Virus record (IMG/VR): IMGVR_UViG_3300047585_000133
Coordinates: 1-64,000 of that record
Origin: a virus
DNA: 64,000 nucleotides
Strand: one strand, 5' to 3'
Position numbers and translations under genes: made by a program. Below the pieces are notes generated by a model that ran no database searches, had not been told where the DNA came from, and worked only from the letters and a program-made list of their open reading frames with translations. This document shows, piece after piece, positions 29,210 through 44,088 of the stretch. Positions within the stretch are counted from its first letter, which is position 1; every line of letters begins with the position of its first letter.

Positions 29210-30751
29210 CTAGCTGCCCGTCCCGGTCGCCGAGGCGTTCTGCTGCGACTGGATCGCCGTCAGCCCCCCGGACAGGTCGATCGACATCTGCACCGTGATG
29301 TAGTTCAGCGGCATCGCCGGCAGGTACGTGAACACCACCGTGATGATCGTCGGGTTGCCGCCCGGGTAGGCCTGCTGGGTCACCGTCAGGTTCTGGTAGG
29401 AGATGATCACGTTCCCCGTGACCGCCGCCTCCAGGATGCCCAGCACCGACTCCTGCACCGCGCTGACCGTGTTCGCGGTGATCGGCGACCCGATCAGGCC
29501 GCTGGACTGCAATCCCTGGCTGACCGCCACCAGCAGGGAATCCGCCTGGCGGACCACCGAGATCTCCTGGTGGTTGATCGCGCTCATGTCCGTCGTCAGG
29601 CCCTGCCGGCAGATCAGCGCCCCCGTGTAGTTCACCGCGCAGACACTCACCCCGTAAGCGGCAATCGAGTTCATGAACGCGTTGGTCATCGAACTGACCT
29701 CGGCCTGCGGCAGGCCCGCCGTTCCCCGGATCACCTGGTTGGTCGTCCCGGTGTTCACCGGCAGGGACGACAGGACGGCCCCCAGGGCTACCGCCAGGTA
29801 ACATCCGCTGGCCTGGAACGTCGTACTGGTCGCCGTGTTGTACAGCTGCACGATCTCCGGGTAGGCCAGCACCAGGCGCCGCGACGCGATAGCGGAGGCG
29901 AACGTCGGAACCGGGATATCGGACTCGCTGTAATTGCGCGGCAGCCCGAAGAACCCGATCCGGGGGAAACCGTCGTTGTAGGCGGTCACCATCGCGGTGT
30001 TCAGCGCCTGCGCCATCGACATCGCCTCCGCCGCCACCGTCCCCGATCCCGGGGTCAGGTCGTCGGTGAACACCGGCACCACGATCGTGCACGCCGCCGT
30101 GGTAGCGACCTTCGCGTAGGCGGCGGTGAACTGCTGCTCCAGCGAGCCGTCCGCCGGGTTGCAGGCCACCATGAGCAGGGTCGTCGCCCCGTTGGAGAAG
30201 GCGATCTGCGCGGCGCACGACAGCGGGTTGGCCACCTGGGAGGCGTTCACGGTCACGGGGACCGTCGACAGGAACGGCTGCCCGTAGGCGTTGATCACCG
30301 ACTGCTGGTCGGTGAAGACCTGCGGGGCGTAGTAGGTCGCGTCCGCGTAGTTGTAGGTGATAGCGACCTGCTGGCCGTCGGAAACATTCGGGCTGCCGCT
30401 GACCCGGACGATGGTTGCCGAGGCCAGGCCCGGGTTCCCCGACGGGCTGGCAACCACCGTCAGGGTGTAGTCCGTCCCCGGGGTCAGGATCGTCCCGGCC
30501 AGGGTGGTCACTACGGGAGCGGAGATTGCGGGCGGCCCGGATACGGCCGTAGTGAAAATCCCCGTGTAGGTCAGGGCGGTGGCGCTGGCGGCCGAGATGA
30601 TCAGCGACTGGATCGCGGTGCGGTAGCCGAGGGCCGGGCCGATCAGGGTGACGACCTGGGACGGCACCAGGGGAGTGACGACGACCGGGATGGAAGTGTC
30701 CTGAACGTACACCTGCGGAGGGGTGTACGACGTAAAGGATGGGATTGTCAC
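29210..30751 (-). CDS. Tail sheath protein
   Basis: YTPPQVYV N-terminus; RQGLTTD, EISVVRQAD and YLPAMPLNYITV C-terminus. Confidence 0.9.
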   Translation of the reverse strand: MTIPSFTSYTPPQVYVQDTSIPVVVTPLVPSQVVTLIGPALGYRTAIQSLIISAASATALTYTGIFTTAVSGPPAISAPVVTTLAGTILTPGTDYTLTVVASPSGNPGLASATIVRVSGSPNVSDGQQVAITYNYADATYYAPQVFTDQQSVINAYGQPFLSTVPVTVNASQVANPLSCAAQIAFSNGATTLLMVACNPADGSLEQQFTAAYAKVATTAACTIVVPVFTDDLTPGSGTVAAEAMSMAQALNTAMVTAYNDGFPRIGFFGLPRNYSESDIPVPTFASAIASRRLVLAYPEIVQLYNTATSTTFQASGCYLAVALGAVLSSLPVNTGTTNQVIRGTAGLPQAEVSSMTNAFMNSIAAYGVSVCAVNYTGALICRQGLTTDMSAINHQEISVVRQADSLLVAVSQGLQSSGLIGSPITANTVSAVQESVLGILEAAVTGNVIISYQNLTVTQQAYPGGNPTIITVVFTYLPAMPLNYITVQMSIDLSGGLTAIQSQQNASATGTGS

Positions 30752-30822
30752 TAAATGTCCCTTTTCCCGGTCCGGGCCCTGAAGTGGTCATCTCTTCCGG
30801 GGCAGCACGAGACAATGACCGC

Positions 30823-31068
30823 ATGCCGAAACTCCCCTGGCCCGAGGGCCTCCCGGCCGAGCCGTCGCACGTGGCGAAAGAGGTCCCCCTGCGCACCTGG
30901 TACCGCTCCCTGAAAGACGGAAAGCTGTGGTGCGAGAGCAGCGACCCGGACGAAGTGAGGACCAGCGGAGGCGACGCCCTCCAGGTACTGCGGTACTACG
31001 CGGTGACCAGCGGCTGGCAGCCCTGGGACCCGGATGAGATCCGCCCGGACGAGATTCCCCGGGTCTAG
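30823..31068 (+). CDS. Hypothetical protein
   Basis: High GC3; LWCESSDPDEV motif. Confidence 0.55.
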   Translation: MPKLPWPEGLPAEPSHVAKEVPLRTWYRSLKDGKLWCESSDPDEVRTSGGDALQVLRYYAVTSGWQPWDPDEIRPDEIPRV

Positions 31069-31718
31069 TCCGGCGGCGTCGTGATGATCTCCCCCGACGG
31101 GATATCGATGATCGTCTGGTCGGGGAAACCCTGCACGTCCATCACCACCTGGATCTCACTTAGGTTGACCAGCGCCTGGGTGTACGGGTCGGTGACGAAC
31201 TCCCCGATCACCTGGACCGCGAAGCCCCGCTCGTAGATCACGTCCATCGTGCCCCACGGCGTACCAGGTGCAGCCGCGCCGCTGCGGTCCTCCACCGTGT
31301 CGAAACTCCACACGCTGGCCACCAGCGGGGCGTTCTCCGTGATCTGGCGGAAGTGAGACGGGAAACTCGACTGGGCGGCGAACGCGGTCAGGGAGATCAG
31401 CTGGTCGTAGATCATGTCCCGCTCGTTGGAACTCAGCGCCACGATCGTGAACACGACATGGCCGGCGAACCGCCAGCGGGCGTAGGAATTGTTCTGCGCG
31501 TCCGTCTGGGTATAGGCGATCCCCACCGTCCGCAGCTCGGCGCCCTCGTAGTCCACCCAGATCGCCGGGTACTGCGCCTGCTCCACCGGGTACTCAATCG
31601 ACACAAACGGCTGCCTCGAAGTGCCCCCGTCGGCGTCAGGCGGCGGGTAGCGGGAGGTGAACGACTGCTGGATCGCGTTGACCGCAGTCGTCTTGATTGT
31701 CCTCAGGTACCCGGTCAC
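31065..31718 (-). CDS. Tail terminator/neck protein
   Basis: VSIEYP...YPAIWV and ALSSNERD; upstream of sheath. Confidence 0.7.
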   Translation of the reverse strand: MTGYLRTIKTTAVNAIQQSFTSRYPPPDADGGTSRQPFVSIEYPVEQAQYPAIWVDYEGAELRTVGIAYTQTDAQNNSYARWRFAGHVVFTIVALSSNERDMIYDQLISLTAFAAQSSFPSHFRQITENAPLVASVWSFDTVEDRSGAAAPGTPWGTMDVIYERGFAVQVIGEFVTDPYTQALVNLSEIQVVMDVQGFPDQTIIDIPSGEIITTPPD

Positions 31719-31790
31719 ACTGCTTCCGGGCTCGCCCGCACCAGATCCGGCCCGGCCGGATACTAACCAGTGTCACCGCAGCGGGTGAGG

Positions 31791-31820
31791 GCGGCGCCTC
31801 CAGGGGTCAGGGGGCGCCGC
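31791..31820. terminator. Hairpin terminator
   Basis: GCGGCGCCTC / GGGGCGCCGC stem. Confidence 0.5.
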
Positions 31821-31977
31821 CGCCGCTCAGGCGTCCCAGAGCCCGGTGTCATGGCGGCTGATGCGTTTCCCCTTACGCGAGGGAAACTGCTTCCGGACCC
31901 GGTACGGCATCCGCTCGGCGTCCCCGTGGCCCGCGATCTTGTGGGACTTGCACATCGGGCAGCCCTTCCAGCGGCGG

Positions 31978-32286
31978 CTACTCGTCCTGGCCAAAGTCTG
32001 TCACTCCCCGCTTACCGCAAACAGAGCACCGAACGTTCTCCATCCACCAGGCGTACGCCTCGTCCGGGTCCATGTCGGTCAGCTCACCGGGGAACGCGAC
32101 GCAGGTGACCCCGTACTCCTTCTCGCCGCACGAGCAGACCGTCCTCGTCCCGTCCAGGTGAACGTGATGATCGCGGTGCGGGTCGTTGGCTTCCTCCCAG
32201 GCCAGCTCCTGGAGTTCATCCGCCTCGCGGATCTCCCGGCGCACGGCAGCTTTAGCAGCCATCCGGCCTTCCCAGGTGTCAGTCAT
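31978..32286 (-). CDS. Hypothetical Zn-binding protein
   Basis: Start MTDTWEG coupled to the upstream stop; CSC and CSVC motifs. Confidence 0.6.
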   Translation of the reverse strand: MTDTWEGRMAAKAAVRREIREADELQELAWEEANDPHRDHHVHLDGTRTVCSCGEKEYGVTCVAFPGELTDMDPDEAYAWWMENVRCSVCGKRGVTDFGQDE

Positions 32287-33689
32287 CAGAACCGGCTCCT
32301 CCAGGTTCGGTCTGCCGCGTAGATCCGGTTGGGGACGATACCGCCCTGCTGGGCCGCCAGGGACACCGCATGGTTGAGGAACTTGCGCGGCGCCAGTCCC
32401 GGGTGCCGCCACTTCACCCCGACGTTGCCCTTGGCGACGGCCCCGGCCACCTTGCCCGGCGTCGTGAACGGGCGGCTCGTCTCCCGTTTGGAGATCCGGC
32501 CGGGAGCACCAGGCTGGACGGCCTTGCGGAAGATCAGCACCTGGGTCTTCCCGGACAGGGTCAGCCGGGTCTTCGCCTTCGGGTTCTTCGCCCGCTCGCT
32601 GCCGTCCAGGTCGTCGACCCACATCGGGATCGTCTTGCCCTGGAGGGCGAACATGGTGAACGGCCGGATGCCCTGTTCCTGGAACCAGACGTAGCTGTTG
32701 TGACTTGCCATCCCCTCAGACATGTAGGTGTGCTCGCTTGTCTCCATAAGCATCACCATCCGCTCTCCGACATCTCGGACTGCCACTACCCGGCGTTCTC
32801 TGGTCGCTCGCATGTACCTGTTTTCGTAGCGCAGCTTGGGAAGCAGCCGGAGCGGACGAATAGACCCCAAGAATCTGGCTTGCTCTGAAAATCCGCCCAG
32901 GATGTCAAGATGCCAAGCGGTACCCGTACCCTGCCAGGCTCTGTAACGGAAGCCCCGAGATTCCAGCAGACGCTTGATCTCATCAAGCACAGGGCCAGCA
33001 TTCTGGGCTACTACCAGTCCTCCTGCGTTGGTCCACGACTCGCTTCGAGAGCCGTTGTAGAACATCGATCCTTCACCGTCGTAAATCCCAGCGAGCCACC
33101 CAGCCTCTCGCGACTTGTCTTCGTCCCAGGTAGGCAGGTAGTAGCCGATCCGGTCTCCGGGTCGCAGCTCGGCCGCCTTCATCCACTTCCTCGGATGACC
33201 ATCATGGCGAGATCCGAGGAGCGGGTGAGTCCGGGTACACGTGAAGCGGAATCCGTCGTCGAATTCGACCTCTACGCACTGGCGCGGCGCAGGAACAGCA
33301 GCGAGAACCTCGGCAGTACGGAAGCGACGACCTCGACCCCGGTATCCGTCTGGAGTCGGGACAACATCCTCGTCCACTGCGATGAGCTTGTCTCCGGCGA
33401 CGATCTTTTCGACTGGAACCCACTGCCAGTCTGATCTCAGGACACGCATACCAAATGATACACAGTCTGCCCAGCCGAGGCCGAAGAAGCCCTGGCCGTA
33501 CAAGGGGAACAGGCGGCTGGCCGAGGCCCCGGTCAGCTTCGGCATGACCCGCCGGGCCTCCTTGACGGCGACGTTGGCCAGGGTCCGGGCCCGGGACCCG
33601 GACAGGCCGTCCACCCGCATGATCAATCGATCGGGATGGGCGGCGATCACCATCTCCTGCGTCTCGACCAGAGCGACCATGCTGCCCAT
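32286..33689 (-). CDS. Neck/tail-completion protein containing an intein
   Basis: Exteins ...GFFGLGWAD and SYVWFQEQGIRPFTM...WRHPGLAP. Confidence 0.75.
   Translation of the reverse strand: MGSMVALVETQEMVIAAHPDRLIMRVDGLSGSRARTLANVAVKEARRVMPKLTGASASRLFPLYGQGFFGLGWADCVSFGMRVLRSDWQWVPVEKIVAGDKLIAVDEDVVPTPDGYRGRGRRFRTAEVLAAVPAPRQCVEVEFDDGFRFTCTRTHPLLGSRHDGHPRKWMKAAELRPGDRIGYYLPTWDEDKSREAGWLAGIYDGEGSMFYNGSRSESWTNAGGLVVAQNAGPVLDEIKRLLESRGFRYRAWQGTGTAWHLDILGGFSEQARFLGSIRPLRLLPKLRYENRYMRATRERRVVAVRDVGERMVMLMETSEHTYMSEGMASHNSYVWFQEQGIRPFTMFALQGKTIPMWVDDLDGSERAKNPKAKTRLTLSGKTQVLIFRKAVQPGAPGRISKRETSRPFTTPGKVAGAVAKGNVGVKWRHPGLAPRKFLNHAVSLAAQQGGIVPNRIYAADRTWRSRF
32697..33464 (-). mobile_element. Intein (256 aa) with LAGLIDADG endonuclease
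   Basis: Starts CVSFGMRVL, block B CTRTHP, WLAGIYDGEG, ends ASHN followed by Ser; lower GC3 than the exteins. Confidence 0.92.
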
Positions 33690-33699
33690 GGTAGGCCCG

Positions 33700-34300
33700 G
33701 ATAGGCTACCGGCGGGTAAGCTACCGGCGGGTAACCGGCTTAGAAAACTAATTCCACTAGTGCAACCTAAATACCCTAACTACTACTATAGACAATAAAT
33801 TTTTTCTAAAAATTATTAGTAGTTAGTACTTATAGGTGTTGCAGTTAGCGAACGCCACGCGGCTACTGATAGTCACTACGCGGCCACTTAAAGTGATAGT
33901 GCAATTCTTCCGAGAGCCAGTGCAATTCTTTGTGCACTGAAAGTGCGATTCTTTTGTTCGATATACGCGGCTGACCTGGAGTTAGTGCAATAGTGCAGTT
34001 CTTTTGCCCTGGTATGAGCTACGCGCGATGCTAAGGCTAAGTTACGTAATCGTCAGTTCACTCTTAGTCACTACGCGGCCGGTCTCCCCGTGATGTCCGA
34101 TTTGACTTATTTGAGAGCTTCGTCCCTCCGCAGATTTTCTCAGAGGATCCGGGCAAAAATAACTGCACTATTGCACTTCTTGCAGCTAGCATTACTTAAA
34201 TCGAATACAGGTTCTGCACTTTTAATTGCACGGGTCTGCACCAGACGGCCGAGAATTGCACGGATCTCCGTCACGACCCGGACTCGGTTATGGTGACTGC
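33700..34300. repeat. AT-rich non-coding region with direct and inverted repeats (origin-like)
   Basis: AGTGCRRTTCTT at 33898, 33919, 33942, 33992; 26-bp inverted repeat 33984-34009/34151-34177; TAGTCACTACGCGGCC at 33870 and 34065. Confidence 0.75.
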
Positions 34301-34368
34301 TACCCTGGCCAGCCTCTTTGCGGCAATCTGGCCTAGTCAGTCCCGTGCGTCACCATAAGGAGTCTTCC

Positions 34369-34611
34369 GTGAGCGTTACTGCGCCCGTACCCAGAGAGGG
34401 CGGCGACCGCCTGTTCACCCCGGCCGAGGTGGCGGCGATCTTCCGGGTCGACCCCAAGACGGTCACCCGCTGGGCAGCTGCCAGACCTCCCCGGATCCGC
34501 TCAATGCGTACCCCGGGCGGCCACCGCCGGTTTCCCGAGTCCGAGGTCTACCTGCTGCTGAACGGGCAGGTCGCGGGCACCGCCCAGCAGTTATCAAGAA
34601 AACCTGTATAA
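34369..34611 (+). CDS. bldC: BldC-family MerR-like transcriptional regulator
   Basis: LFTPAEVAAIFRVDPKTVTRWA...RTPGGHRRF; RBS AAGGAG. Confidence 0.9.
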   Translation: MSVTAPVPREGGDRLFTPAEVAAIFRVDPKTVTRWAAARPPRIRSMRTPGGHRRFPESEVYLLLNGQVAGTAQQLSRKPV

Positions 34612-34616
34612 AAGTC

Positions 34617-34646
34617 TTGCTGGTTGGCGAGAGAGGATGGTACGGT
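34617..34646 (+). promoter_or_regulatory. Putative housekeeping-sigma promoter of the tRNA array
   Basis: TTGCTG-18 nt-TACGGT with a TGG extended -10; ATG at the predicted start site 34653. Confidence 0.55.
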
Positions 34647-34706
34647 TTGAACATGCCGCCGGGGAACCGGCGGACAGCAGACCCCAGCAGTCCAGGACAA
34701 GGAAGC

Positions 34707-34823
34707 ATGGAACTCTCCGCCTCACCCGTTTACCAGCCGTCGTGCTGGCTGAAGGCGCATGACGCCGTCAGCTTCCAGCCCGCGACTGGAAGGGGCAGTG
34801 AGCGCCGGGGGCTCCCCGGGTAG
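34707..34823 (+). CDS. Putative leader peptide of the tRNA array (alternative leaderless start 34653)
   Basis: RBS AAGGAAG; 38 codons, 31 distinct; stop lies inside the antiterminator arm. Confidence 0.6.
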   Translation: MELSASPVYQPSCWLKAHDAVSFQPATGRGSERRGLPG

Positions 34824-34844
34824 GACCTTACGAGGAACTTGCCC

Positions 34845-34888
34845 AGGAGCCGCCAGCGGAGAGAAAACCGCAGGCGGCTCCTCTGGTT
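34845..34888 (+). terminator. Attenuator-type terminator before the first tRNA
   Basis: AGGAGCCGCC/GGCGGCTCCT stem plus inner GCGG/CCGC; weak U tract. Confidence 0.65.
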
Positions 34889-34906
34889 CCCGGGTACAAC
34901 TGAACA

Positions 34907-34976
34907 TGCGAGTAGCCGCTGGGCGGTAGCCGGTCTCCAAAGCCGGCAAGCTGGGTTCGACTCCTGGTACTCGTGC
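34907..34976 (+). tRNA. tRNA-Trp(CCA), atypical D arm
   Basis: CCGGT-CTCCAAA-GCCGG; T loop TTCGACT. Confidence 0.75.
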
Positions 34977-35405
34977 TGGTCCGCGAGGACCTTGCCACCG
35001 GCTGACGGGCGAGAGCCCCGAGGACGGCAACCGGCTCGACTTTTCTCATCTCAACAGCGGAACACGATGCGGCAGGGTGCCAACCTGCCGCACGGTGACC
35101 AGCGGACTGGCCCCTGCCCCGGTATGGTGGCGGAGGAGATCTCCGTACGACCTTTACGGATGGTTCAGGGCACGAAACAAACGGGGCAGGAGCCAGCCTG
35201 CCGGTCACCCAGATTTCGGCGCGGTGAAAGACAATGCAGCTACTCCCGGGGAGCAGCGGCCGTTAAAGGCCGGGGACGTACCGTCAAGGATGGTTCCTGT
35301 ACCGGGCACCGCGCCAGCAAGACTCCCCTCCTCCCGGTGTGCTCACACCCGCCGGGACAAGGGAGCCGTGGGCCCGTCCCTGCTTGCGGGGTCGGGCTCC
35401 ACCAC

Positions 35406-35478
35406 GGGGCCTTGGCGCAGCTGGTAGCGCGTCTGCATGGCATGCAGAAGGTCAGGAGTTCGACTCTCCTAGGCTCCA
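35406..35478 (+). tRNA. tRNA-Ala(GGC)
   Basis: Cloverleaf, G3:U70. Confidence 0.95.
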
Positions 35479-35557
35479 CGAGGGGGCGGTGCGGGTTCGA
35501 ATCCTGCCCGGCGGGAGAAATCCCAACGGTAGCTCAATGGCAGAGCAGCCCCCGTCA
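35479..35557 (+). ncRNA. Permuted tRNA-like RNA (YrlA/Y-RNA-like topology)
   Basis: Order: T arm, loop-closed acceptor, D arm, enclosed by GGGGGC/GCCCCC. Confidence 0.7.
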
Positions 35558-35790
35558 GTTTGGGCAGGATAAACCGGGCGAAACGTAGATGATCCCGGTG
35601 GAGCGGGGACGGCAGGCCGGCGGAACATCGTGCCTGTGGTACTTGGTTGTCCTGGACCGGGAGGGTACCCCGGACGCAAACCTGGTAGGTGCCGTCGTGA
35701 AACACGGCCGTGAGTAGCGGCGGCAACTGCCCGGCGGGCGCCGCGAGCCCGTTAATAGGAAACCGGACCGAGGATTCCGGACGCGGACCT

Positions 35791-35865
35791 GGGCTGTTAG
35801 CTCACCGCAGGTAGAGCACTGCACCCGCAATGCAGAGGTACCCGGTTCGAGCCCGGGACGGTCCA
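35791..35865 (+). tRNA. tRNA-Ala(CGC)
   Basis: Cloverleaf, G3:U70, C33. Confidence 0.9.
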
Positions 35866-35989
35866 CGGGAGGAAGACGCAGGGTTCGATTCCATGCCCGG
35901 CCGCTTGGGAGGCCGGCGCTCATGCGAGTACGCGTTGCGGAAAGCCTGCGCCGGCCGCGTCCGGTACCTCAGGGCAGAGGACTCCGTCA
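35866..35989 (+). ncRNA. Second permuted tRNA-like RNA with an enlarged acceptor insertion
   Basis: T loop TTCGATT first; D arm CCTC-AGGGCA-GAGG last; closing GGAG/CTCC. Confidence 0.55.
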
Positions 35990-35990
35990 C

Positions 35991-36063
35991 GGGGAAGTAG
36001 CTCAGCTGGAAGAGCACCCGCCCTGCAAGCGGGATGTCAGGGATTCGAGTTCCCTCTTCTCCA
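35991..36063 (+). tRNA. tRNA-Ala(TGC)
   Basis: Cloverleaf, G3:U70, C33. Confidence 0.9.
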
Positions 36064-36114
36064 CGTCGGCCTCTGGAATCCCCGGGAGAATGATCTCCCG
36101 CCATGCCGGCTCCA

Positions 36115-36188
36115 CGGGATATTGCGTAGTGGTAGCGCGCCTGGTTTGGGACCAGGCGGCTGGGGTTCGATTCCCTGTATCCCGACCA
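36115..36188 (+). tRNA. tRNA-Pro(TGG)
   Basis: Cloverleaf with encoded CCA. Confidence 0.92.
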
Positions 36189-36434
36189 GTCGCCTGGAGC
36201 TGGCTCAAGCTCCCTGGTTTCCCCCGAGCAGGGAGCTGGTCCCGGAAGCACCGGGAGGGCGGCGTTAAGTCCGGTACACGGCTGCGGCGCACGGGACATT
36301 CCGGTTCGACTCCGGATCGCCGCAGTGCAGTAGGCCGCGTTGCCCCTAGCAAGCGGGCGCCGAAAAACCGCCTGGAGCGGCAGTAGCTTGCAGGTGACCG
36401 GGACGCGATCGCGACGTGAGCCCGGCACCGTCAA

Positions 36435-36508
36435 CGGAGCGTAGCTCAACTTGGCAGAGCACTCGGCTGGGGGCCGAGCGGTTGCGCGTTCAAATCGCGC
36501 CACTCCGA
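36435..36508 (+). tRNA. tRNA-Pro(GGG)
   Basis: CTCGG-CTGGGGG-CCGAG. Confidence 0.92.
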
Positions 36509-36584
36509 CGTGAGGGCCTAGGGCCGGGTAACCGGCTGGCGCGATATACGACCTAGGGAGCGGGAGCACTGGTACCCCGCATAT

Positions 36585-36659
36585 CTGGCTATGGCGCAGC
36601 TTGGCTAGCGCGCTGCCTTCGGGAGGCAGAGGTCCCCAGTTCAAATCTGGGTAGCCAGA
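36585..36659 (+). tRNA. tRNA-Pro(CGG)
   Basis: CTGCC-TTCGGGA-GGCAG. Confidence 0.95.
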
Positions 36660-36879
36660 CGAGACCCAAAGGCCACGGGTCTGCTGGAACGCGGGTTCGC
36701 TACCTGCGTTGGATGCAAGGTGTAGGGCGCACAGGGGCGCGCGGACGCCCAGAGCCGGGGGAAACCCGGTAGCTGGGTGGTCACGGGCCTCGGGGCCGGG
36801 TTCAACTCCCGGGGCATCGCTGGATCTCAAAGGCCCAAGTGAGGCGGAAGATAGGGCCACGCCCTGCCGGAGATCTTAT

Positions 36880-36953
36880 GGTCGCTTAGCTCAGTTGGAA
36901 CGAGCGCCTGATTGAAACCCAGGAGGACCCCCGTTCGGCTCGGGGAGTGACCA
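36880..36953 (+). tRNA. tRNA-Phe(GAA)
   Basis: Cloverleaf; A:C mismatch at 31:39. Confidence 0.88.
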
Positions 36954-37203
36954 CGGTGACGGAGTACTACGTCACTTGGGCCCTGTGGTAAGCGCACCAC
37001 AGGGAAAGCGGTTGGCAGGCTACGCCAGCTCCTCCGGGGGCGAGCCGGGTTCAAAACCCGGGACCGTGCGATGCCGTGACCCTGTCGATCGCAGGATCAC
37101 CACGGCAGCCGGGAAAGAACTTTCCCGGCGCGAAGGTTGCCGGTAACCCCTGCGTTAAAGGGAGGCAGTTCCGTTGCAACGGACTGCCGTGGAACTGGAC
37201 CAT

Positions 37204-37274
37204 GCGGATGTCGTCCAACGGCAGGACAGCAGCCTTCCAAGCTGCTGATGCGGGTTCGAGTCCCGTCTTCCGCT
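37204..37274 (+). tRNA. tRNA-Gly(TCC)
   Basis: GCAGC-CTTCCAA-GCTGC. Confidence 0.92.
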
Positions 37275-37471
37275 CTACGGCACGACGCCCCGCCTGGCTC
37301 CGCCCAAATGGTACCCAGGGGGATACGGCCGGGAGAGTAGCGCTCCTCCCGGTAAGCCGGCCTGTTGCAACGGGCCGGACTTCGTGCCGCCCGGGTGATC
37401 CTGCCGGAGCCCCTGTGAGCCCTGCCGCAAGCGGGGCAATACCAGGCTCCCCGGCGGGACTCCGGGACCCT

Positions 37472-37544
37472 GCGCCGCTAACTCAACTGGCAGAGTACCG
37501 TCCTCTTAAGTCGGGAGTTGGGGGTTCAAGTCCCTCGCGGCGCA
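37472..37544 (+). tRNA. tRNA-Lys(CTT)
   Basis: Cloverleaf; U:U mismatch in the anticodon stem. Confidence 0.9.
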
Positions 37545-37622
37545 CTGAAGGAATGCTGAAGGCCAAACCCGGGGCTGGTGCCGACGAAGAGGCCTCCTGC
37601 CACCAGCAGCATTCCTTCTCAC

Positions 37623-37696
37623 GGGCAAGTAGCAGAACGGCATATGCGGCGGATTCAAGCTCCGCGCTCTTACGGGTTCGAATCCCGTCTTGCCTA
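37623..37696 (+). tRNA. tRNA-Leu(CAA), short variable arm
   Basis: GCGGA-TTCAAGC-TCCGC. Confidence 0.85.
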
Positions 37697-37776
37697 CGTG
37701 CCGGGTCGCTCCCGGCGGAGCAGGGGATCGTGCACAGGACCCGTCCTGCCCAGTGGACCGGGGAAGTGCTCACCAT

Positions 37777-37848
37777 TGGAGTATGGCGTAATCGGCAGCG
37801 CGCCGGGTTCTGGTCCCGGCGGTCTAGGTTCGAGTCCTGGTACTCCAG
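37777..37848 (+). tRNA. tRNA-Gln(CTG)
   Basis: CCGGG-TTCTGGT-CCCGG; U1:A72. Confidence 0.95.
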
Positions 37849-37916
37849 CGTGATCGTCGGAGTTTCGTTGGCAGGATCCCAGTCCTGCACCTGGGCAACT
37901 TCGCCGGCGGTCTTAT

Positions 37917-37989
37917 GCCCCTGTAGCTCAGACGGAAGAGCAGTGCACCCGTAATGCACAGGCCAGCGGTTCGAAGCCGCTCGGGGGCT
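37917..37989 (+). tRNA. tRNA-Thr(CGT)
   Basis: GTGCA-CCCGTAA-TGCAC; C33. Confidence 0.9.
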
Positions 37990-38189
37990 CGTAGTGCAAC
38001 ACCGGAGACCTCGGTCTCGCATGCACGTCCGGGTAGCGCAAGGTGGAACCGTCCGGCGGTTAGAAGGAGCGAGGTACAGGCGGGGCTCCCGCGACGGCTA
38101 GGGATGAGGCCGTCACCACGATCGTGATCCTGGTCAGGCCCAGGTGTGCGAGTGGCCATAGGCATGAGGGCCGCCGCCAGGATCACCAT

Positions 38190-38274
38190 GTCCGTGTGGC
38201 GAAATGGCATACGCGCCAGCTTGAGGTGCTGGTGCCCCGCGAGGGGTGTGAGGGTTCGAGTCCCTCTTCGGACA
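38190..38274 (+). tRNA. tRNA-Leu(GAG)
   Basis: Class II with long variable arm. Confidence 0.92.
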
Positions 38275-38449
38275 CATGGTGGGAGATCCCGGTGACGGGC
38301 TAACCGGGGCGGATTGCGTCCAGCGGTCTGCTAGCTCAGGGCCGCTTCTGGACAGAAGAGCCCCACCTTACACGCCTCTGGCTCCAACGAGCGGGCGTCC
38401 CCTGTACGGACACCAGCCCGGGGTGGCACCGGGTGGAGGCTCCATTCGA

Positions 38450-38520
38450 TCCGGGATCGTTTAACGGCAGGACGCGGTATTTTGAGTGCCGCTGTGTTGG
38501 TTCGAGTCCAGCTCCCGGAA
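38450..38520 (+). tRNA. tRNA-Gln(TTG)
   Basis: CGGTA-TTTTGAG-TGCCG. Confidence 0.9.
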
Positions 38521-38532
38521 CGAAAGTCACAT

Positions 38533-38605
38533 GCCCGGATAGCTCAGTTGGCAGAGCATGCGCATGGTAAGCGCAAGGTCATCGGTTCAAATCCGTTTTC
38601 GGGCT
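38533..38605 (+). tRNA. tRNA-Thr(GGT)
   Basis: TGCGC-ATGGTAA-GCGCA. Confidence 0.92.
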
Positions 38606-38617
38606 CGCATTAAATAT

Positions 38618-38689
38618 GTCGGCGTAACTCAGCGGTAGAGTGCGGCGTTGCCAACGCCGTTGTCGCGGGTCCGAATCCCGTCGCCGACT
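38618..38689 (+). tRNA. tRNA-Gly(GCC)
   Basis: CGGCG-TTGCCAA-CGCCG; T loop TCCGAAT. Confidence 0.9.
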
Positions 38690-38911
38690 CTATGGGGTAC
38701 CAGATCTCTGCTGGCCCAAAGCCCGAGCCATGGCACAGAGCATCCTCCGAGGCCGGACGCGGCCGACGGGGACCCCATTTCAGGCAGGTACAGGATCAGT
38801 ATGGTCTGGCAAAGCGGCGGAAGTCGCCATTCTCCGGAGAACGCAACCTGACCTGACTCCCTATCCGACTCCCGGGACGGATCCAGACAAGGGGGATAAG
38901 TCCCGGGGCAT

Positions 38912-38983
38912 GCGACCGTAGTGTCAAAGGCAGCACACGACCTTCCCAAGGTCGGTGAGCCGGTTCGAATCCGGTCGGTCGCT
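38912..38983 (+). tRNA. tRNA-Gly(CCC)
   Basis: CGACC-TTCCCAA-GGTCG. Confidence 0.92.
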
Positions 38984-39100
38984 CACCTGACACCAGCATC
39001 AGGCTCCGCGAGCCGCCTGCCCCAAGGTTTCCGGGCAGATGAGACTACGGTTGCCCAAAGGTATCTTCAAGCGGACTCCGGGCTGGCGGGGTCCGTCCAT

Positions 39101-39185
39101 GGGCGTGTGGTGGAACGGCAGACACGCTGGCCTCAGGTGCCAGTGGCCCGGAAGGGCCGTGAGGGTTCGAATCCCTCTTCGCTCA
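39101..39185 (+). tRNA. tRNA-Leu(CAG)
   Basis: Class II with long variable arm. Confidence 0.92.
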
Positions 39186-39288
39186 CAAAGCCGCTGGCGA
39201 CGCGGCGGCCTGGCATGGCGGGATCAGCATTTCCAGGATGCCCGCCTGACCATTTACCCCAAGCCTGGACCCGGGGGAGCGTCGTAAT

Positions 39289-39373
39289 GGAGAGTGAACC
39301 GGACGGGCGTCCGGGCTTCGCTGCTAACGAATGCGCGCTGTGAAGGCGTGGGTTTCGAGTACTCCGCTCTCCG
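39289..39373 (+). tRNA. tRNA-Ser(GCT), 8/4 acceptor/T-stem type
   Basis: Acceptor GGAGAGTG/CGCTCTCC (8 bp); T stem GGGT/ACTC (4 bp); G73. Confidence 0.8.
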
Positions 39374-39806
39374 CTCGACGGGCTGTAAGGAACGGGTTGT
39401 TCCGGCCGGCAAGACGGGTTCGAGTCCCGTACAGTCCACGCGGGGTTCGATTCCCCGCTACGGGTGCTGCGACCCGTGCCAGGCTCCGGCCGCGAAGCGC
39501 TCCCAGGGGCGACCGCAGATTATGGAGAGGTCGCCTAGTCTGGCCTATGGCGCCGCGTCGGAAGCGCGGTCGGGGTAACCCTCGCGAGTTCGAATCTCGC
39601 CCTCTCTGCCACTCGCCGGCAGCCATGTCCAGAGTGAGCACCTCCTGCTGGCCGGGGGTCGTGAAGATGATCTCCACGCCGAACTCCCCGTGCTTGCCCT
39701 CCACCATGAAGAGGGCCCTCTTGATCATGGTCACCACAGGGAGCGCAGCCGCGTCTGGATTCTTCAGCCCCCGGACCGTCACGGTCACCTTTATCTCGCC
39801 TTCCAC
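39324..39806 (-). CDS. Hypothetical protein inserted antisense in the tRNA array
   Basis: Coding-like GC3 only over 39612-39806; the frame then runs antisense through tRNA-Ser genes. Confidence 0.45.
   Translation of the reverse strand: MEGEIKVTVTVRGLKNPDAAALPVVTMIKRALFMVEGKHGEFGVEIIFTTPGQQEVLTLDMAAGEWQRGRDSNSRGLPRPRFRRGAIGQTRRPLHNLRSPLGALRGRSLARVAAPVAGNRTPRGLYGTRTRLAGRNNPFLTARRAESGVLETHAFTARIR
39380..39438 (+). ncRNA. Anticodon-less tRNA-Ala-like RNA
   Basis: Acceptor GGGCTGT/ACAGTCC-A with G3:U70; perfect T arm; no anticodon arm. Confidence 0.7.
39524..39611 (+). tRNA. tRNA-Ser(GGA)
   Basis: Class II; C33; encoded CCA. Confidence 0.92.
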
Positions 39807-39821
39807 CCCGGAAGGCTATCT

Positions 39822-39904
39822 GGCGAGGTCGCACAGTGGCCTAGTGCGCTTGCTTCGAAAGCAAGTGGGGGCGACCCCCGTGAGTTCGAATCTCACCCTC
39901 GCTG
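39822..39904 (+). tRNA. tRNA-Ser(CGA)
   Basis: CTTGC-TTCGAAA-GCAAG; class II. Confidence 0.92.
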
Positions 39905-39988
39905 CTCTGTCCCGGCCGCTCACTTCGCGTGCTTCGAGGTTTCGTGAGCCTCCCTCTTTTAGGTCGCACACGAGCCGGGACAGGTCAT

Positions 39989-40071
39989 GGCGGGGTCGCC
40001 TAGCGGCCTAGGGCGCCGGCTTTGAAACCCGGTGAGGGGAACCTCCGTGGGTTCGAATCCCACCTCCGCTG
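39989..40071 (+). tRNA. tRNA-Ser(TGA)
   Basis: Class II; C:C at 31:39. Confidence 0.88.
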
Positions 40072-40269
40072 CTAGACGCCCGTGCGGGTGCGCCTGGTGT
40101 TCCAGTTGCCCGCGCCCCAGCCGGACCCGAACCCGGCGGCGGCGAGCGCGAAGAAGGCGAGCCCGATGGCGATGATCCCGACGACGACGGTCAGCGAGAT
40201 GCTGTGGACGCCGACGATCGCGATGATCGCGGCGACGATGAAGGCGAGGACGGCAAGGCCGTAGGTCAT
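40072..40269 (-). CDS. Small two-TM membrane protein
   Basis: Two hydrophobic helices, basic tail, RBS AAGGAG. Confidence 0.75.
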   Translation of the reverse strand: MTYGLAVLAFIVAAIIAIVGVHSISLTVVVGIIAIGLAFFALAAAGFGSGWGAGNWNTRRTRTGV

Positions 40270-40328
40270 GACATGCTCCTTCTACTGGAGGAGCATGCGC
40301 TCCCCGGTGCTTCCGGGGCGCGCACCAC

Positions 40329-40402
40329 GGGCGTGTAACTCAGATGGTCAGAGTACTTCCCTGATAAGGAAGAAGGCGCTGGTTCAAGTCCAGCCTCGCC
40401 CA
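40329..40402 (+). tRNA. tRNA-Ile(GAT)
   Basis: CTTCC-CTGATAA-GGAAG. Confidence 0.92.
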
Positions 40403-40472
40403 CCGGCACGCAGCGATCATCTGAGCCAGGACGTTCCGGAGACACGGCTGTACCGGGCGCTGCGAGCCTCAC

Positions 40473-40545
40473 GGCGGTGTAGCTCAGTCGGCAGAGCACC
40501 CGACTCATGATCGGGTTGCCGGTGGTTCGATCCCACCTACCGCTA
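40473..40545 (+). tRNA. tRNA-Met(CAT), elongator type
   Basis: CCCGA-CTCATGA-TCGGG; unusual G37. Confidence 0.88.
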
Positions 40546-40547
40546 CC

Positions 40548-40623
40548 GGGGGCGTATCCCCTCTGCCTTATAAGCAGTCGAAAGGGTAACCGGTGCAAGC
40601 GGGTTCAAGCCCCGCCGCCCCTA
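40548..40623 (+). tRNA. Non-canonical tRNA-Ile(TAT)-like RNA without a normal D arm
   Basis: Acceptor GGGGGCG/CGCCCCT-A; CTGC-CTTATAA-GCAG; T arm GCGGG-TTCAAGC-CCCGC. Confidence 0.7.
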
Positions 40624-40624
40624 C

Positions 40625-40695
40625 GCCTCTCTAGCACAATGGAATGCAGCGGGCTTTTACCCCGTGGAGTCAGGGTTCAAGTCCCTGGGGAGGCA
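40625..40695 (+). tRNA. tRNA-Lys(TTT)
   Basis: GCGGG-CTTTTAC-CCCGT. Confidence 0.85.
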
Positions 40696-40699
40696 CTGA

Positions 40700-40773
40700 G
40701 CGCCAGTAGCTCAGCGGAACAGAGCGGCTGGCTTCTATCCAGCTGGTCGGGGGTTCGATTCCCTCCTGGCGTA
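40700..40773 (+). tRNA. tRNA-Arg(TCT)
   Basis: GCTGG-CTTCTAT-CCAGC. Confidence 0.92.
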
Positions 40774-40857
40774 CGTGAACGGCCGCGCTTAAAGACGGCC
40801 CCGTGGACCCGCAGCTAGCGGCGGGGACTCAGAGACTCGTCGGTCAAGCAGTCCTAT

Positions 40858-40929
40858 GGTCCTATCGTCTAGCGGTCAGGACGGCTGCTTCTCAGGCAGC
40901 TGACGCGGGTTCGACTCCCGCTGGGACTA
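40858..40929 (+). tRNA. tRNA-Glu(CTC)
   Basis: GCTGC-TTCTCAG-GCAGC. Confidence 0.92.
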
Positions 40930-41109
40930 CGAACACGGGTAAGCGCGCTTGGCCTTTACCGGACCGATCATCCGGGTAACGGCCTGGAGACCCTGAAGGG
41001 CGAAGCCTCGGCTATGAGGGCTTGTTATGATCCTCCTGTGAAGCAGGGAAATCGCCCTGGGACCGGCGGTACATGGCACGCCCGGGGACCCGCCTGCAAC
41101 GCGCACCAA

Positions 41110-41181
41110 GCCCCCATCGTCTATTGGTTAAGATCGCGGCCTTTCAAGTCGCGGAACGGGGTTCGAATCCCCGTGGGGGAG
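41110..41181 (+). tRNA. tRNA-Glu(TTC)
   Basis: GCGGC-CTTTCAA-GTCGC; 1:72 mismatch. Confidence 0.88.
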
Positions 41182-41212
41182 CAAGGCCGGGACTGTTATC
41201 CTGGTCGTGCGA

Positions 41213-41287
41213 CGCGGAGTGGGGAAGTTCGGTGTTCCCGCTGGCCTCATAAGCCAGAGATCGCTGGTTCAAATCCAGCCTCCGCTA
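41213..41287 (+). tRNA. tRNA-fMet(CAT)-like
   Basis: C1:U72 mismatch as in initiators; anticodon stem CTGGC/GCCAG lacks the third G-C pair. Confidence 0.85.
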
Positions 41288-41567
41288 CGAGAGAAGCAGG
41301 TGCTAGCGCTCTTACGTCCGGACGTACTGGGGGCCTGTTCGCTAGCACCGGACCGTGACCGGCTGCCCGGCCGGCTCTCGCAACGGGCAGGCCCATCCGG
41401 ATGGCAGTACGGGTGTCAGCAGACCCCCTCGCGCTGCGGGCCGAAGCGGGGGACCAGAATCTTCTAGTGCGAGGAGAAATCATGCGAGAAAAAGACCCGG
41501 CTCCGTGCGGCGCCTGCGGGCAGGTACACGACGGGCCGTGCCCTGGCCAGGGCGGCTGAACGAACGA

Positions 41568-41641
41568 TCTCCGGTAGCTCAATCGGCAGCAGCAGCGTCC
41601 TGTTAAGGCGATGGTTCCAGGTTCGAGTCCTGGTCGGAGAG
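41568..41641 (+). tRNA. tRNA-Asn(GTT)
   Basis: Loop CTGTTAA; U1:A72; G73. Confidence 0.88.
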
Positions 41642-41718
41642 CTGTGCGGTCCTGCCCGCGCCGACACCACCCGGGATGCACGGGGAGGGAAGCACCCGGC
41701 GGGGTGCAGCAGGATCAT

Positions 41719-41792
41719 GGTTGTGCAGAGCAGACGGAGTGCTCGCCTCCCTGTCAAGGAGGAGATCACGGGTTCGAGTCCCGTCACGACCG
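41719..41792 (+). tRNA. tRNA-Asp(GTC)
   Basis: CCTCC-CTGTCAA-GGAGG; G73. Confidence 0.92.
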
Positions 41793-42006
41793 CTGAGGGG
41801 AAGGTCATTACCGGGCGGCAGGACACCTTCCCCTTCAGTCCAGCCCGGCGCGGCGCCGGAGTTCGCGGTGGGCAACCTGGCTGACGTTCAGGATGGCGCG
41901 CCAGCCGCCGTACCACTTGCCGACGGCAAGTCCGACAAGTAGACCGACGACCAGGCCTGCGAGGAACATACCTTCAACGGTACCTCCGGCCGAAGTGCCT
42001 GACTAC

Positions 42007-42081
42007 GGGTGTTTAGCTCAGCGGGAGAGCGCTGTCTCGACAAGGCAGAGGCCGCAGGTTCGATCCCTGCACCACCCACCA
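42007..42081 (+). tRNA. tRNA-Val(GAC)
   Basis: C33; encoded CCA. Confidence 0.9.
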
Positions 42082-42209
42082 GCAGCATGGGCTCTACCCG
42101 GTGATCTCCAGGGGCCGGCAGTTTCGTTCTAGACTCCGGGGCGGCTGGCGGAAGGTCCGAAGGCGGTAATCCTGGTTAAGCCGCCCGAATAGCCCATGCT
42201 GCTGTACAT

Positions 42210-42283
42210 GCCCTCATAGCTCAGCGGACAAGAGCGGCGCGCTACGGACGCGCAGGACGGGAGTTCGAGTCTCTCTGGGGGTA
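42210..42283 (+). tRNA. tRNA-Arg(ACG)
   Basis: GCGCG-CTACGGA-CGCGC. Confidence 0.92.
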
Positions 42284-42450
42284 CGCGAAGGTGGTGTAAG
42301 AGGCCGGCTCCGGCCGGGTCCGTGCGCACGGGCCCGGCCGGACAGGGGACCTCAAACGGAAGGAGGCGGAACCATGGATAACCGCGCTCCGGACAGCACT
42401 CCCCGGTTCCACCCGGGGCAGTCCTGGCAGAATCCAGGCCTTCGTGCCAC

Positions 42451-42522
42451 GGGCAATTAGCTCAGCGGGAGAGCGCTTCGTTCACACCGAAGAAGTCGGC
42501 GGTTCGAGTCCGTCATTGCCTA
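42451..42522 (+). tRNA. tRNA-Val(CAC)
   Basis: CTTCG-TTCACAC-CGAAG. Confidence 0.93.
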
Positions 42523-42524
42523 CC

Positions 42525-42600
42525 GGGTCGTGATCCATATGGCTGAGGAAACGGTTTGTGAGACCGTTATTGACGGGTTCGAATCCCGTACGACCCTCCA
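42525..42600 (+). tRNA. tRNA-His(GTG), atypical
   Basis: ACGGT-TTGTGAG-ACCGT; U73 and no encoded G-1; encoded CCA. Confidence 0.8.
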
Positions 42601-42601
42601 T

Positions 42602-42686
42602 GGCAGGTTACTCAAGCGGCAACGAGGGCGGCCTGTAAAGCCGCTGGCCCAGTCCTGCGCTGGTTCGAGTCCAGCACCTGTCACCA
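42602..42686 (+). tRNA. tRNA-Tyr(GTA)
   Basis: Class II; encoded CCA. Confidence 0.92.
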
Positions 42687-42687
42687 T

Positions 42688-42761
42688 GCACCTGTAGCTC
42701 AGCGGACAGAGCGCCGGTTTCCGGAACCGGGTTGCCGGGGGTTCGAGTCCCTCCAGGTGCA
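42688..42761 (+). tRNA. tRNA-Arg(CCG)
   Basis: CCGGT-TTCCGGA-ACCGG. Confidence 0.92.
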
Positions 42762-42915
42762 CGTGCATCCCCAGGGCCGCCGGCTAACCATTGGCCGGTT
42801 ACAACAGCCCCCTGCTCAGTCCTCATGGACATACATGGCCGGATGAAGGGAGTCCTGGTACCAGGCGGCACCTCCAAGTGCCCGGTACCGGCGGATAGGC
42901 CCGGGGATGCACCCT

Positions 42916-42987
42916 GACGGGATGGCCGAGCGGCTCAGGCACGCCCCTGCAAAGGGCGATACACGGGTTCGAATCCCGTTTCCGTCT
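42916..42987 (+). tRNA. tRNA-Cys(GCA)
   Basis: CGCCC-CTGCAAA-GGGCG; U73. Confidence 0.93.
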
Positions 42988-43022
42988 CGGGGACCTGGTC
43001 CGGTGCACCGACGCAGATGCTA

Positions 43023-43095
43023 AGCCCGGTAGCTCAGCGGACAGAGCCGCCGTTTCCTAAACGGAAGACCGAGAGTTCGAATCTCTCCCGGGCCG
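43023..43095 (+). tRNA. tRNA-Arg(CCT)
   Basis: Loop TTCCTAA; canonical D and T arms. Confidence 0.88.
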
Positions 43096-43135
43096 CCTGA
43101 ACGTGTTCCGCTGCTGAGCTGCGCCGGGAAGGGTC

Positions 43136-43468
43136 ATGAGCACGCCGATCCCGCCCGATACCGTCGCCCAGGGGCAGACCGGGCACATCGCCGCCCACAA
43201 CTCGATCTCCGACGTCCTGACCCAGTTCGAGAACCAGCTGTCCGCCATTCCCGGCCTCAGCTACGGGACTGCCACCCTCGTCGCCGGGTCGGTGAACGTC
43301 ACCCTGCCGTCGGTGACCACGGGCGTACCCATCCTCGTTTCACGGATGACCCCGGGCGGGACCGTCGGCCACCTGGCCGTTCCTGTCGTCAATAACGGCA
43401 GCGGCTTCACCATCACCTCCAGCTCGTCCGCCGACACCTCCGTGATCGCCTGGCTCGTCCTCGGCTAG
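43136..43468 (+). CDS. Small virion protein
   Basis: GTATLVAG...FTITSSSSADTS fibre-type C-terminal motif. Confidence 0.7.
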   Translation: MSTPIPPDTVAQGQTGHIAAHNSISDVLTQFENQLSAIPGLSYGTATLVAGSVNVTLPSVTTGVPILVSRMTPGGTVGHLAVPVVNNGSGFTITSSSSADTSVIAWLVLG

Positions 43469-43496
43469 CGGCCACGGAAGGACTAGGAGGAAATCA

Positions 43497-44051
43497 ATGT
43501 CCGTCATGGAATCCGACCTGCCCTCGGCAGGCGACGCGCTGTCCGTCATGTGCCAGAACCAGATGTCCGGCCGTACCGTCATCGCGGCCGATGCCAAGCG
43601 GAACTACGAGGTCGTCTGGGAAGGGAAAGGGGACCCGGACGGCAACGACGTCCAGCCGATCCCCGACGCCCTGCTGCGCACCATCCAGTTCCAGCGGGCT
43701 ATCAGCCGGGGGGTAATCCGCGTCGTCGAGGGAGCCGACCACCCGGTGGTGAAGCAGGCCCTGGCCCGGCAGAACGACTCGTTCGCCAGGCGGATGGCCG
43801 CCTCCGACATGGCCGCCCGCGAGGTGATCGACGCCCCTGCCGCGAACGACATCACCGTGGTCAACTGTTTCGGCCCCGGCAGCCGTGAGGGAGCCGTCTG
43901 CGGGGAGCAGGTGCCGGTCCGCTCCGGGGACACCGGCAAGCCGCCGCTGTGCGACCGCCACGCGGGACTGAAGGACCGCTGCGTCAAGCGCGGCGACGGC
44001 CCCTGGGTCCTGGAGGACGACGGCCTCGCATTCGAGGGAGGGCAGTTCTAG
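43497..44051 (+). CDS. Conserved phage hypothetical protein
   Basis: WEGKGDPDGNDVQPIP; C-terminal Cys/His; RBS AGGAGG. Confidence 0.7.
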   Translation: MSVMESDLPSAGDALSVMCQNQMSGRTVIAADAKRNYEVVWEGKGDPDGNDVQPIPDALLRTIQFQRAISRGVIRVVEGADHPVVKQALARQNDSFARRMAASDMAAREVIDAPAANDITVVNCFGPGSREGAVCGEQVPVRSGDTGKPPLCDRHAGLKDRCVKRGDGPWVLEDDGLAFEGGQF

Positions 44052-44088
44052 ATGGACGCGCTCAGCGCTGCGGCAGCAGGGACCTGAA

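Follow-up and report, generated by a model that had tools for sequence, protein, structure and literature searches.

A phage array of 39 tRNA genes is headed by a conserved leader that may act as a transcription attenuator of the leader-peptide type, set by a translating ribosome; we favor this reading tentatively, with a confidence a little short of even. Leader and array lie in the IMG/VR virus record IMGVR_UViG_3300047585_000133, a record of 120 kb of which the first 64 kb were analyzed. The G+C content of the record is about 67%. The stretch of 64,000 nucleotides, hereafter called the window, also holds phage genes for a virion structural/tape-measure protein, a DNA methyltransferase and a helicase. 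An earlier note on this DNA, made from the sequence alone, had proposed a pan-tRNA attenuator in which a codon-sampling leader peptide gates an array of 41 tRNAs; the count obtained with ARAGORN is 39, all on the + strand. The parts of the leader and the array are as follows, in order along the transcript, with ORF standing for open reading frame and A and T for the two hairpins.

34617 to 34646, + strand: promoter-like element of the actinobacterial TTGnnn / TAnnnT type, with TTGCTG (34617-34622), an 18-nt spacer and TACGGT (34641-34646).
34653 to 34706, + strand: 5' part of the predicted transcript, with an ATG that lies 7 nt past the -10 hexamer and shares the reading frame of the leader ORF; a 7-bp hairpin capped by a GGAA loop comes next (34656-34673).
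34707 to 34823, + strand: leader ORF of 38 codons with the stop codon TAG at 34821-34823; the two halves of the ORF pair with each other in a predicted rod that carries an apex hairpin at 34748-34772.
34803 to 34858, + strand: hairpin A, the candidate antiterminator, with a 5' arm at 34803-34824 (last six codons and stop), a small inner hairpin and a 3' arm at 34838-34858.
34845 to 34882, + strand: hairpin T, the candidate terminator, with 10 + 4 bp and a 1x1 internal loop.
34883 to 34907, + strand: tail after T, reaching as far as tRNA-Trp and comprising a weak U-run (CTGGTTCC) and, at 34896-34905, the conserved motif ACAACTGAAC.
34908 to 43097, + strand: tRNA array of 39 ARAGORN-detected genes that cover all 20 amino acids, with tRNA-Trp first.

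If the leader is an attenuator, transcription would start at the conserved promoter and the short ORF would be translated, from a leaderless start in some members of the family. Region 2, which comprises the last codons and the stop codon, would pair alternatively with region 1 (the ORF start, in the rod) or with region 3 (the 5' arm of T), and the latter pairing would be the antiterminator A. A ribosome running to the stop codon would cover region 2, T (regions 3 and 4) would form, and most transcripts would end before tRNA-Trp. A ribosome stalling early would cover region 1 and leave region 2 free, A would form first, and RNA polymerase would enter the tRNA genes, the products of which would relieve the stalls and thus close a homeostatic loop. 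Since the only conserved promoter is found upstream of T and T ends 26 nt before tRNA-Trp, the array must be read through T.

The layout is not restricted to the window but belongs to a family of soil phages with a high G+C content. Altogether, 12 distinct leaders were compared (the window, L153, L163, L132, L138, L199, L002, L135, L145, L238, L251 and L253), and promoter, ORF, A, T and tRNA-Trp were present in all of them. Duplicates had been removed: L152 is the L132 contig, L142 has the same ORF as L132, and L167, L200 and L254 equal L145, L199 and L251, respectively. A search of viral contigs with the helix-turn-helix (HTH) protein encoded upstream of the leader yielded 10 loci, of which 1 was syntenic (L002), and the pattern of hairpin T matched there at 2 loci, of which L132 was new. 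In metagenome contigs, the same pattern matched at 36 loci; T was followed by a tRNA-Trp-like sequence in 9 of these, and the other 27 were unrelated. A profile search with eight HTH homologues gave 80 loci, 8 of them with Trp-Ala-Ala tRNAs downstream, and added 4 new distinct leaders. Another 22 matches to the T pattern in bacterial genome contigs had neither tRNA-like sequence downstream nor leader-like flanks and were taken as chance, and a 14-mer of the 3' arm of T proved too unspecific in viral contigs, so its loci were not used. A DNA search of 34300-35400 against named phage genomes gave no match. At the more distant phage loci L005 and L006 (identical to L268 and L269), the HTH gene is followed by tRNA-Pro and tRNA-Lys; a promoter is present, and neither a leader ORF nor a hairpin T of this kind was found there. 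One metagenome contig is of a different make: in L144:1904-2008 (+), T and tRNA-Trp directly follow the C-terminal part of an apparent repeat protein (...GTVFKLTP...), the frame of which continues through T, and both the leader ORF and the promoter element are missing. This contig may be a chimeric assembly, or T and tRNA-Trp may have been captured elsewhere.

The ORF of 38 codons at 34707-34823, which the earlier note had pointed out, was recovered as the 3' portion of a 68-aa frame (34617-34823), and homologous ORFs of 33-40 codons were present in 12 of 12 leaders, with an ATG at the homologous place (GTG in L002). The stop codon differs among them (TAG in three, TGA in one and TAA in eight) and lies 18-24 nt before hairpin T in every leader. 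In the first eight leaders, frame 0 had no stop in 311 codons and the other two frames had 12 and 6. Unambiguous indels within groups measured 6, 3 and 3 nt. The pooled G+C contents of the three codon positions (GC1/GC2/GC3) were 0.63/0.61/0.84, and GC3 was the highest of the three in all 12 leaders, as it is in the genes of the phage. By frame, start, stop position and coding-type GC3, the ORF is conserved as a frame, and it is likely translated, while the peptide that it would encode drifts. Indeed, the ratio of nonsynonymous to synonymous substitution rates (dN/dS) was 0.46-2.04, i.e., about 1, over 28 pairs, and the differences were spread evenly across codon positions, which argues that the peptide itself is not under selection. 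It is therefore very improbable that the ORF encodes a small functional peptide with the hairpins as its leaky terminator that lets the tRNAs be made. The conserved ORF and its coding-type GC3 would agree with such a peptide, but dN/dS speaks against it and led us to downgrade a peptide function; moreover, the three leader groups have no common peptide motif, a Pfam search with the leader peptide gave no match, and where residues are conserved, they fall on helices and loops of the RNA.

The promoter-like element proposed at 34617-34646 was found, and its position, type and arrangement are the same in all relatives. A simple sigma-70 scan of the E. coli type did not flag it; its -10 hexamer agrees with the TAnnnT promoter consensus (PMC8079986). 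The start of translation is more variable. The ribosome-binding site AAGGAAG that had been noted is present at 34699-34705 but lies only 1 nt before ATG 34707. Likewise, the in-frame ATG at 34653 exists in the window and is a possible leaderless start, but as a conserved extension of the leader it was ruled out. An ATG at the equivalent site is present in the window, L002, L135 and L145 and absent in L153, L163, L132, L138 and L199, these five relatives having ATA or GTA there or lacking the site. In L002, L135 and L145, the ATG opens a separate ORF of 11 codons, ending about 10 nt before the leader ORF. In L002, this small ORF runs from the predicted transcription start (4256-4291), and it sits at homologous places in L135 and L145; it is a possible leaderless upstream ORF that would hand ribosomes to the leader ORF. 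In L238, L251 and L253, 6-7 nt separate the -10 hexamer from the ATG of the leader ORF itself, which is the leaderless form reported for Streptomyces leader peptides (PMC8079986).

The two hairpins are mutually exclusive. Hairpin A folds as had been drawn in the earlier note and extends further, over 34803-34858, and in doing so takes the entire 5' arm of T; it has a predicted energy of -34.9 kcal/mol (z score, -3.31), and 2 of 200 shuffled sequences did as well. The proposed terminator at 34845-34882 likewise folds as a stable hairpin (-29.1 kcal/mol; z score, -6.65), which none of 200 shuffles equaled; T ranged from -27 to -32 kcal/mol across the leaders. As T occurs as a single copy in the 120-kb record, it was ruled out as a generic terminator module of the phage. 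On the alignment of the 12 sequences, 97.4% of the cells of T were paired compared to 37.2-59.0% when the structure was slid along it, and three pairs covaried. For A, the values were 81.9% and 31.6-49.0%, with two pairs changed on both sides; much of A is unable to vary because its 3' arm is shared with T. In every one of the 12 leaders, the stop codon is part of A's 5' arm. The geometry of trp/his-type attenuators that had been recognized in the window, with a helix of ORF end and stop codon occupying the 5' arm of T, was thus seen in all 12 distinct leaders. Furthermore, A's 5' arm nearly repeats the 3' arm of T (13 of 14 letters identical in L002). Regions 1 and 3 are alike, as are regions 2 and 4. 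In 7 of 12 leaders, region 2 paired better with the 5' arm of T than did its shuffled versions (p <= 0.05). The predicted 1:2 element, formed by pairing between the two halves of the ORF, was found in the first 8 and in the later 4 leaders, and in the apex hairpin the stems vary among relatives and the loop is constant.

Folding of the nascent RNA, in which the 3' arm of T is not yet available, paired the last codons and the stop codon with T's 5' arm and the segment immediately preceding it; that is, A formed in 12 of 12 leaders (8/8 and 4/4). When the full sequence was folded, T formed in seven of eight short segments (the exception being L002), in eight of eight longer ones and in all four later leaders. 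Masking of a ribosome-sized stretch at the stop codon also left T formed (8/8). It is unlikely that the choice between A and T is made by something other than a translating ribosome, be it a tRNA, a small RNA or a protein such as the adjacent HTH regulator or an antiterminator of the phage, with the ORF having no sensing role. Conserved and mutually exclusive helices would suit such an effector too, and the regulator gene is always adjacent, its synteny being kept in every relative whose sequence extends that far. However, the HTH_17 protein is a DNA binder by family, and Rfam, T-box included, gave nothing meaningful in 34560-34980 even at E values up to 10. Moreover, the fixed distance from the stop codon to T and the position of the stop codon inside the 5' arm of A point to the ribosome as the effector.

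Several findings weigh against a ribosome-set attenuator. When a mask was placed in the middle of the ORF (codons 6-15), where a stalled ribosome would be expected to favor A, the equilibrium fold was still T in 8 of 8 leaders; read-through would thus need kinetic trapping, and the switch is not arguable from minimum free energies alone. In L199, L238 and L251, the pairing of region 2 was no better than that of shuffles (p = 0.28-0.44), and A leans more on its CTGGG/CCCAG part. The polymerase of mycobacteria requires a U-tract, but at least five T in the eight positions after hairpin T were present in only 3 of 12 tails, with three in the window, and the scan tool did not call T a terminator. 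In predicted folds the tail after T pairs with upstream sequence, and the entire leader folds into a closed, multihelix and very stable structure (-125.8 kcal/mol; z score, -4.31). Five of the 12 leaders (L153, L163, L132, L138 and L199) are without a leaderless start; their sole start signal, a purine-rich element, is separated from the ATG by 1-3 nt, a spacing too close for a Shine-Dalgarno (SD) sequence by the usual rules, and the SD-like purines are paired within the predicted rod. The GC3 excess of a single leader was equaled by 6-10% of the stop-free windows in the array spacers. On the side of the attenuator, there is a weak hint that the leader is expressed. Contigs from two soil metatranscriptome runs of one study cover 34700-34896 and 34700-34922 with five differing letters each, and a third RNA-library contig covers the spacer after tRNA-Trp. 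However, neither strand nor ends can be read from such contigs, and RNA libraries may contain DNA; since the runs are contigs, the absent cover of 34505-34699 and of the tRNA itself proves nothing.

Many of these points would be met by a structured noncoding RNA, which is rather unlikely but is the main alternative to the attenuator. The leader would then close on itself through rod, small hairpin and T and so resist nucleases; cut from the tRNA precursor by RNase P, it would serve precursor processing or stability or act as a stable small RNA. The open frame would be incidental and T would be a 3' protective or processing hairpin instead of a terminator. The closed fold, the weak U-run, the badly spaced and paired SD-like element, and the RNA contigs of about 200 nt that cover just the leader element all agree with this, as do the conserved motif between T and the tRNA, the even distribution of substitutions across codon positions and the retention of rod, apex hairpin and T with compensatory changes. 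On the other hand, an incidental frame leaves much unexplained: frame 0 alone is open in all leaders, its length changes in multiples of 3, its GC3 is the highest in each of the 12, three kinds of stop codon stand at one homologous place, and in three relatives an ATG lies at the predicted transcription start. A static fold also needs no likeness of regions 1 and 3 or of regions 2 and 4.

If the leader is an attenuator, the codons of its ORF should tell what is sensed. The window's ORF has 38 sense codons, of which 31 are distinct, as had been counted before, and they stand for 18 different amino acids. By wobble rules, they call on 28 different anticodons of the ARAGORN-detected array, with AGC and AGT having no ARAGORN-detected reader; the 29 array tRNAs counted earlier are reached only if a tRNA-Ser(GCT) missed by ARAGORN is real. 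Compared to 38-codon stop-free windows, at least 31 distinct codons had a P value of 0.0019 in real genes (n = 1595) and of 0.014-0.039 in noncoding-like nulls. With both kinds of null, P was 0.004-0.039 for at least 18 amino acids and 0.002-0.017 for at least 19 different first codons; for at least 27 anticodons, it was 0.005 (n = 1346). The window's values are unusual, not extreme. That the first 19 codons are all different, a point of the original proposal, is true in the window but is not repeated in relatives: the initial all-different run in eight other leaders (L142, which repeats the L132 ORF, is in this count and the four added later are not) is 4, 4, 4, 4, 18, 6, 6 and 15. The run was therefore ruled out as a design feature.

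Diversity at the level of amino acids is another matter. The 12 leaders contain 18, 20, 18, 18, 18, 17, 19, 18, 19, 18, 20 and 18 distinct amino acids, and general nulls of 38 codons contain 12.8-14.9 on average. All 20 are present in L153 and L251, whereas the window's ORF of 38 codons lacks Ile and Asn and that of L002 lacks Trp. Frame 0 exceeded each of the other five frames in diversity in 11 of 12 leaders and tied in one. With the strictest null, in which bases were permuted within codon positions, the means rose to 15.3-16.8 and the P values per leader were 0.0008-0.31, so the excess is modest; much of it arises because base composition is balanced at codon positions 1 and 2. A Fisher combination with one value per group gave a joint P value of about 0.01. 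Inspection of the peptides showed the rare amino acids at positions that differ from leader to leader. The codons are mostly G/C ending and gene-like, which means that the leaders do not sample rare codons. There is no run or enrichment of codons for one sensed amino acid in any leader, and we therefore describe the element as an attenuator-like variant and not as a plain member of the class. Of the pan-tRNA sampler, then, the conserved amino-acid diversity (17-20 of 20 in all 12 leaders) held; the run of 19 and the leaderless ATG did not, and sampling of isoacceptors is only moderately above chance. As judged from these sequences, the amino-acid diversity is conserved and fits an array serving all 20 amino acids, although selection for diversity is not proven. 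It is possible, if rather unlikely, that the leader is a gauge of decoding for all amino acids. Selection would keep nearly every amino acid in the ORF while leaving the peptide sequence free to drift in all other respects, and a shortage of any aminoacyl-tRNA, from starvation, host shut-off or tRNA cleavage by a host anticodon nuclease, would stall the ribosome and open a complete replacement set of tRNAs, which would then close the switch again. We purely infer that anticodon nucleases would induce the array.

The attenuators trpL, hisL, leuL, thrL and ilv have a leader ORF, 1:2, 2:3 and 3:4 pairings, and a stop codon that lets the terminating ribosome cover region 2 and not region 3. The phage leader resembles them in its short ORF, its four-region alternative pairing, its stop placement and an antiterminator 5' arm that mimics the 3' arm of the terminator. 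It differs from them in that it would control tRNAs, not enzymes, in that its 17-20 amino acids mostly occur once to three times each without a single-codon run, and in that its U-tract is weak and no Rfam leader family matched. T-box riboswitches bind one uncharged tRNA directly and need no ORF; the likeness there is a choice between antiterminator and terminator in a leader that would report tRNA charging, whereas the phage leader has an ORF and gave no T-box match.

Nearest in mechanism among known systems are the leaderless leader peptides of Streptomyces. In Streptomyces lividans TK24, they are found upstream of genes for biosynthesis and for aminoacyl-tRNA synthetases (leuS, trpS, alaS, thrS, trpE, ilvB, leuA and metN; PMC8079986). 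All but a few Streptomyces leader peptides are reported to be leaderless, the leaders have 12-29 residues enriched in the cognate amino acid, and several published Streptomyces attenuators are also without a U-rich stretch (PMC8079986). The phage leaders share with them a high G+C content, TAnnnT promoters, an ORF that begins at the transcription start (L238, L251, L253 and possibly the window, at 34653), hairpins after the ORF and targets in the aminoacyl-tRNA supply chain. In contrast to them, the phage ORF has 33-40 codons (57 if counted from 34653), no amino acid is enriched, and the element is phage borne and stands before tRNA genes.

In its logic, the phage system comes closest to the trn operon of Anabaena sp. 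PCC 7120, a long tRNA array that is silent and is induced by impaired translation (PMC8421152) and that is repressed by the ribbon-helix-helix protein TrcR (PMC10272220). Both arrays are supernumerary and horizontally mobile, and translational stress would turn on the phage array as it does that of Anabaena. In Anabaena, control is by a DNA-binding repressor, and the array is cellular, not phage borne. The terms attenuat-, leader and terminator are absent from the main text of PMC8421152, as judged by a term search. In the portion of the literature that our search covered, no account of attenuation of tRNA genes was found. Genes for tRNAs are thought to be controlled at the promoter, by growth-rate and stringent control, and by processing.

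Two further features lie just upstream of the leader.

34369 to 34611, + strand: gene for an HTH_17/MerR-type regulator (excisionase-like), directly upstream of the leader (Pfam HTH_17, E = 2.7e-09; PHROG 66; alignment of eight homologues).
34591 to 34608, + strand: A-rich element just 5' of the -35 hexamer, seen in the leader alignment and in four further relatives.

We take the regulator to be BldC-like. Every relative retains the A-rich element, even though the sequence encodes the end of the HTH protein in some of them and is noncoding in others, with the HTH frame stopping short of it in five relatives. It may be an UP-like element or an operator for the neighboring regulator. Further upstream, an ORF of 467 aa (32286-33689, - strand) has a weak match to LAGLIDADG_3 in its middle (E = 0.0065, below the cut-off) and a C-terminal PHROG of unknown function; it may carry an intein or a homing-endonuclease insertion. 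The motif ACAACTGAAC between T and tRNA-Trp is conserved with small changes in nearly all relatives and may be a processing signal. In the array, Rfam gave 36 tRNA matches, and no other family reached its gathering score in 30000-46000. The spacers contain T-arm-like motifs of the GGTTCGAATCC type outside the tRNAs called by ARAGORN (35491-35507, 36691-36707, 36797-36811, 37046-37060, 39408-39456 and 40600-40614), and these sites include the place where relatives have tRNA-Ser(GCT); they may be degenerate or unconventional tRNA-like elements. Finally, 119 nt of the window (35091-35211) are absent from the RNA-library contig of a close relative, and this gap matches an inverted repeat of 28 nt (35094-35121 and 35182-35209), which suggests a rod-like spacer element present in some relatives and absent in others.

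The question of why large phages carry sets of tRNAs, and when they use them, is an open one on which this leader bears. If the attenuator reading is true, a leader-ORF switch before a tRNA array would extend attenuation from amino-acid synthesis to the adaptors themselves, and phages could restrict the costly expression of about 40 tRNAs to times at which the decoding capacity of the host fails. If the leader should also gauge all amino acids, a virus would be carrying a tRNA homeostat that works as a closed loop. At about 250 nt, the element is compact and self-contained, and 12 natural variants that differ in the amino acids they lack make these ideas directly testable.

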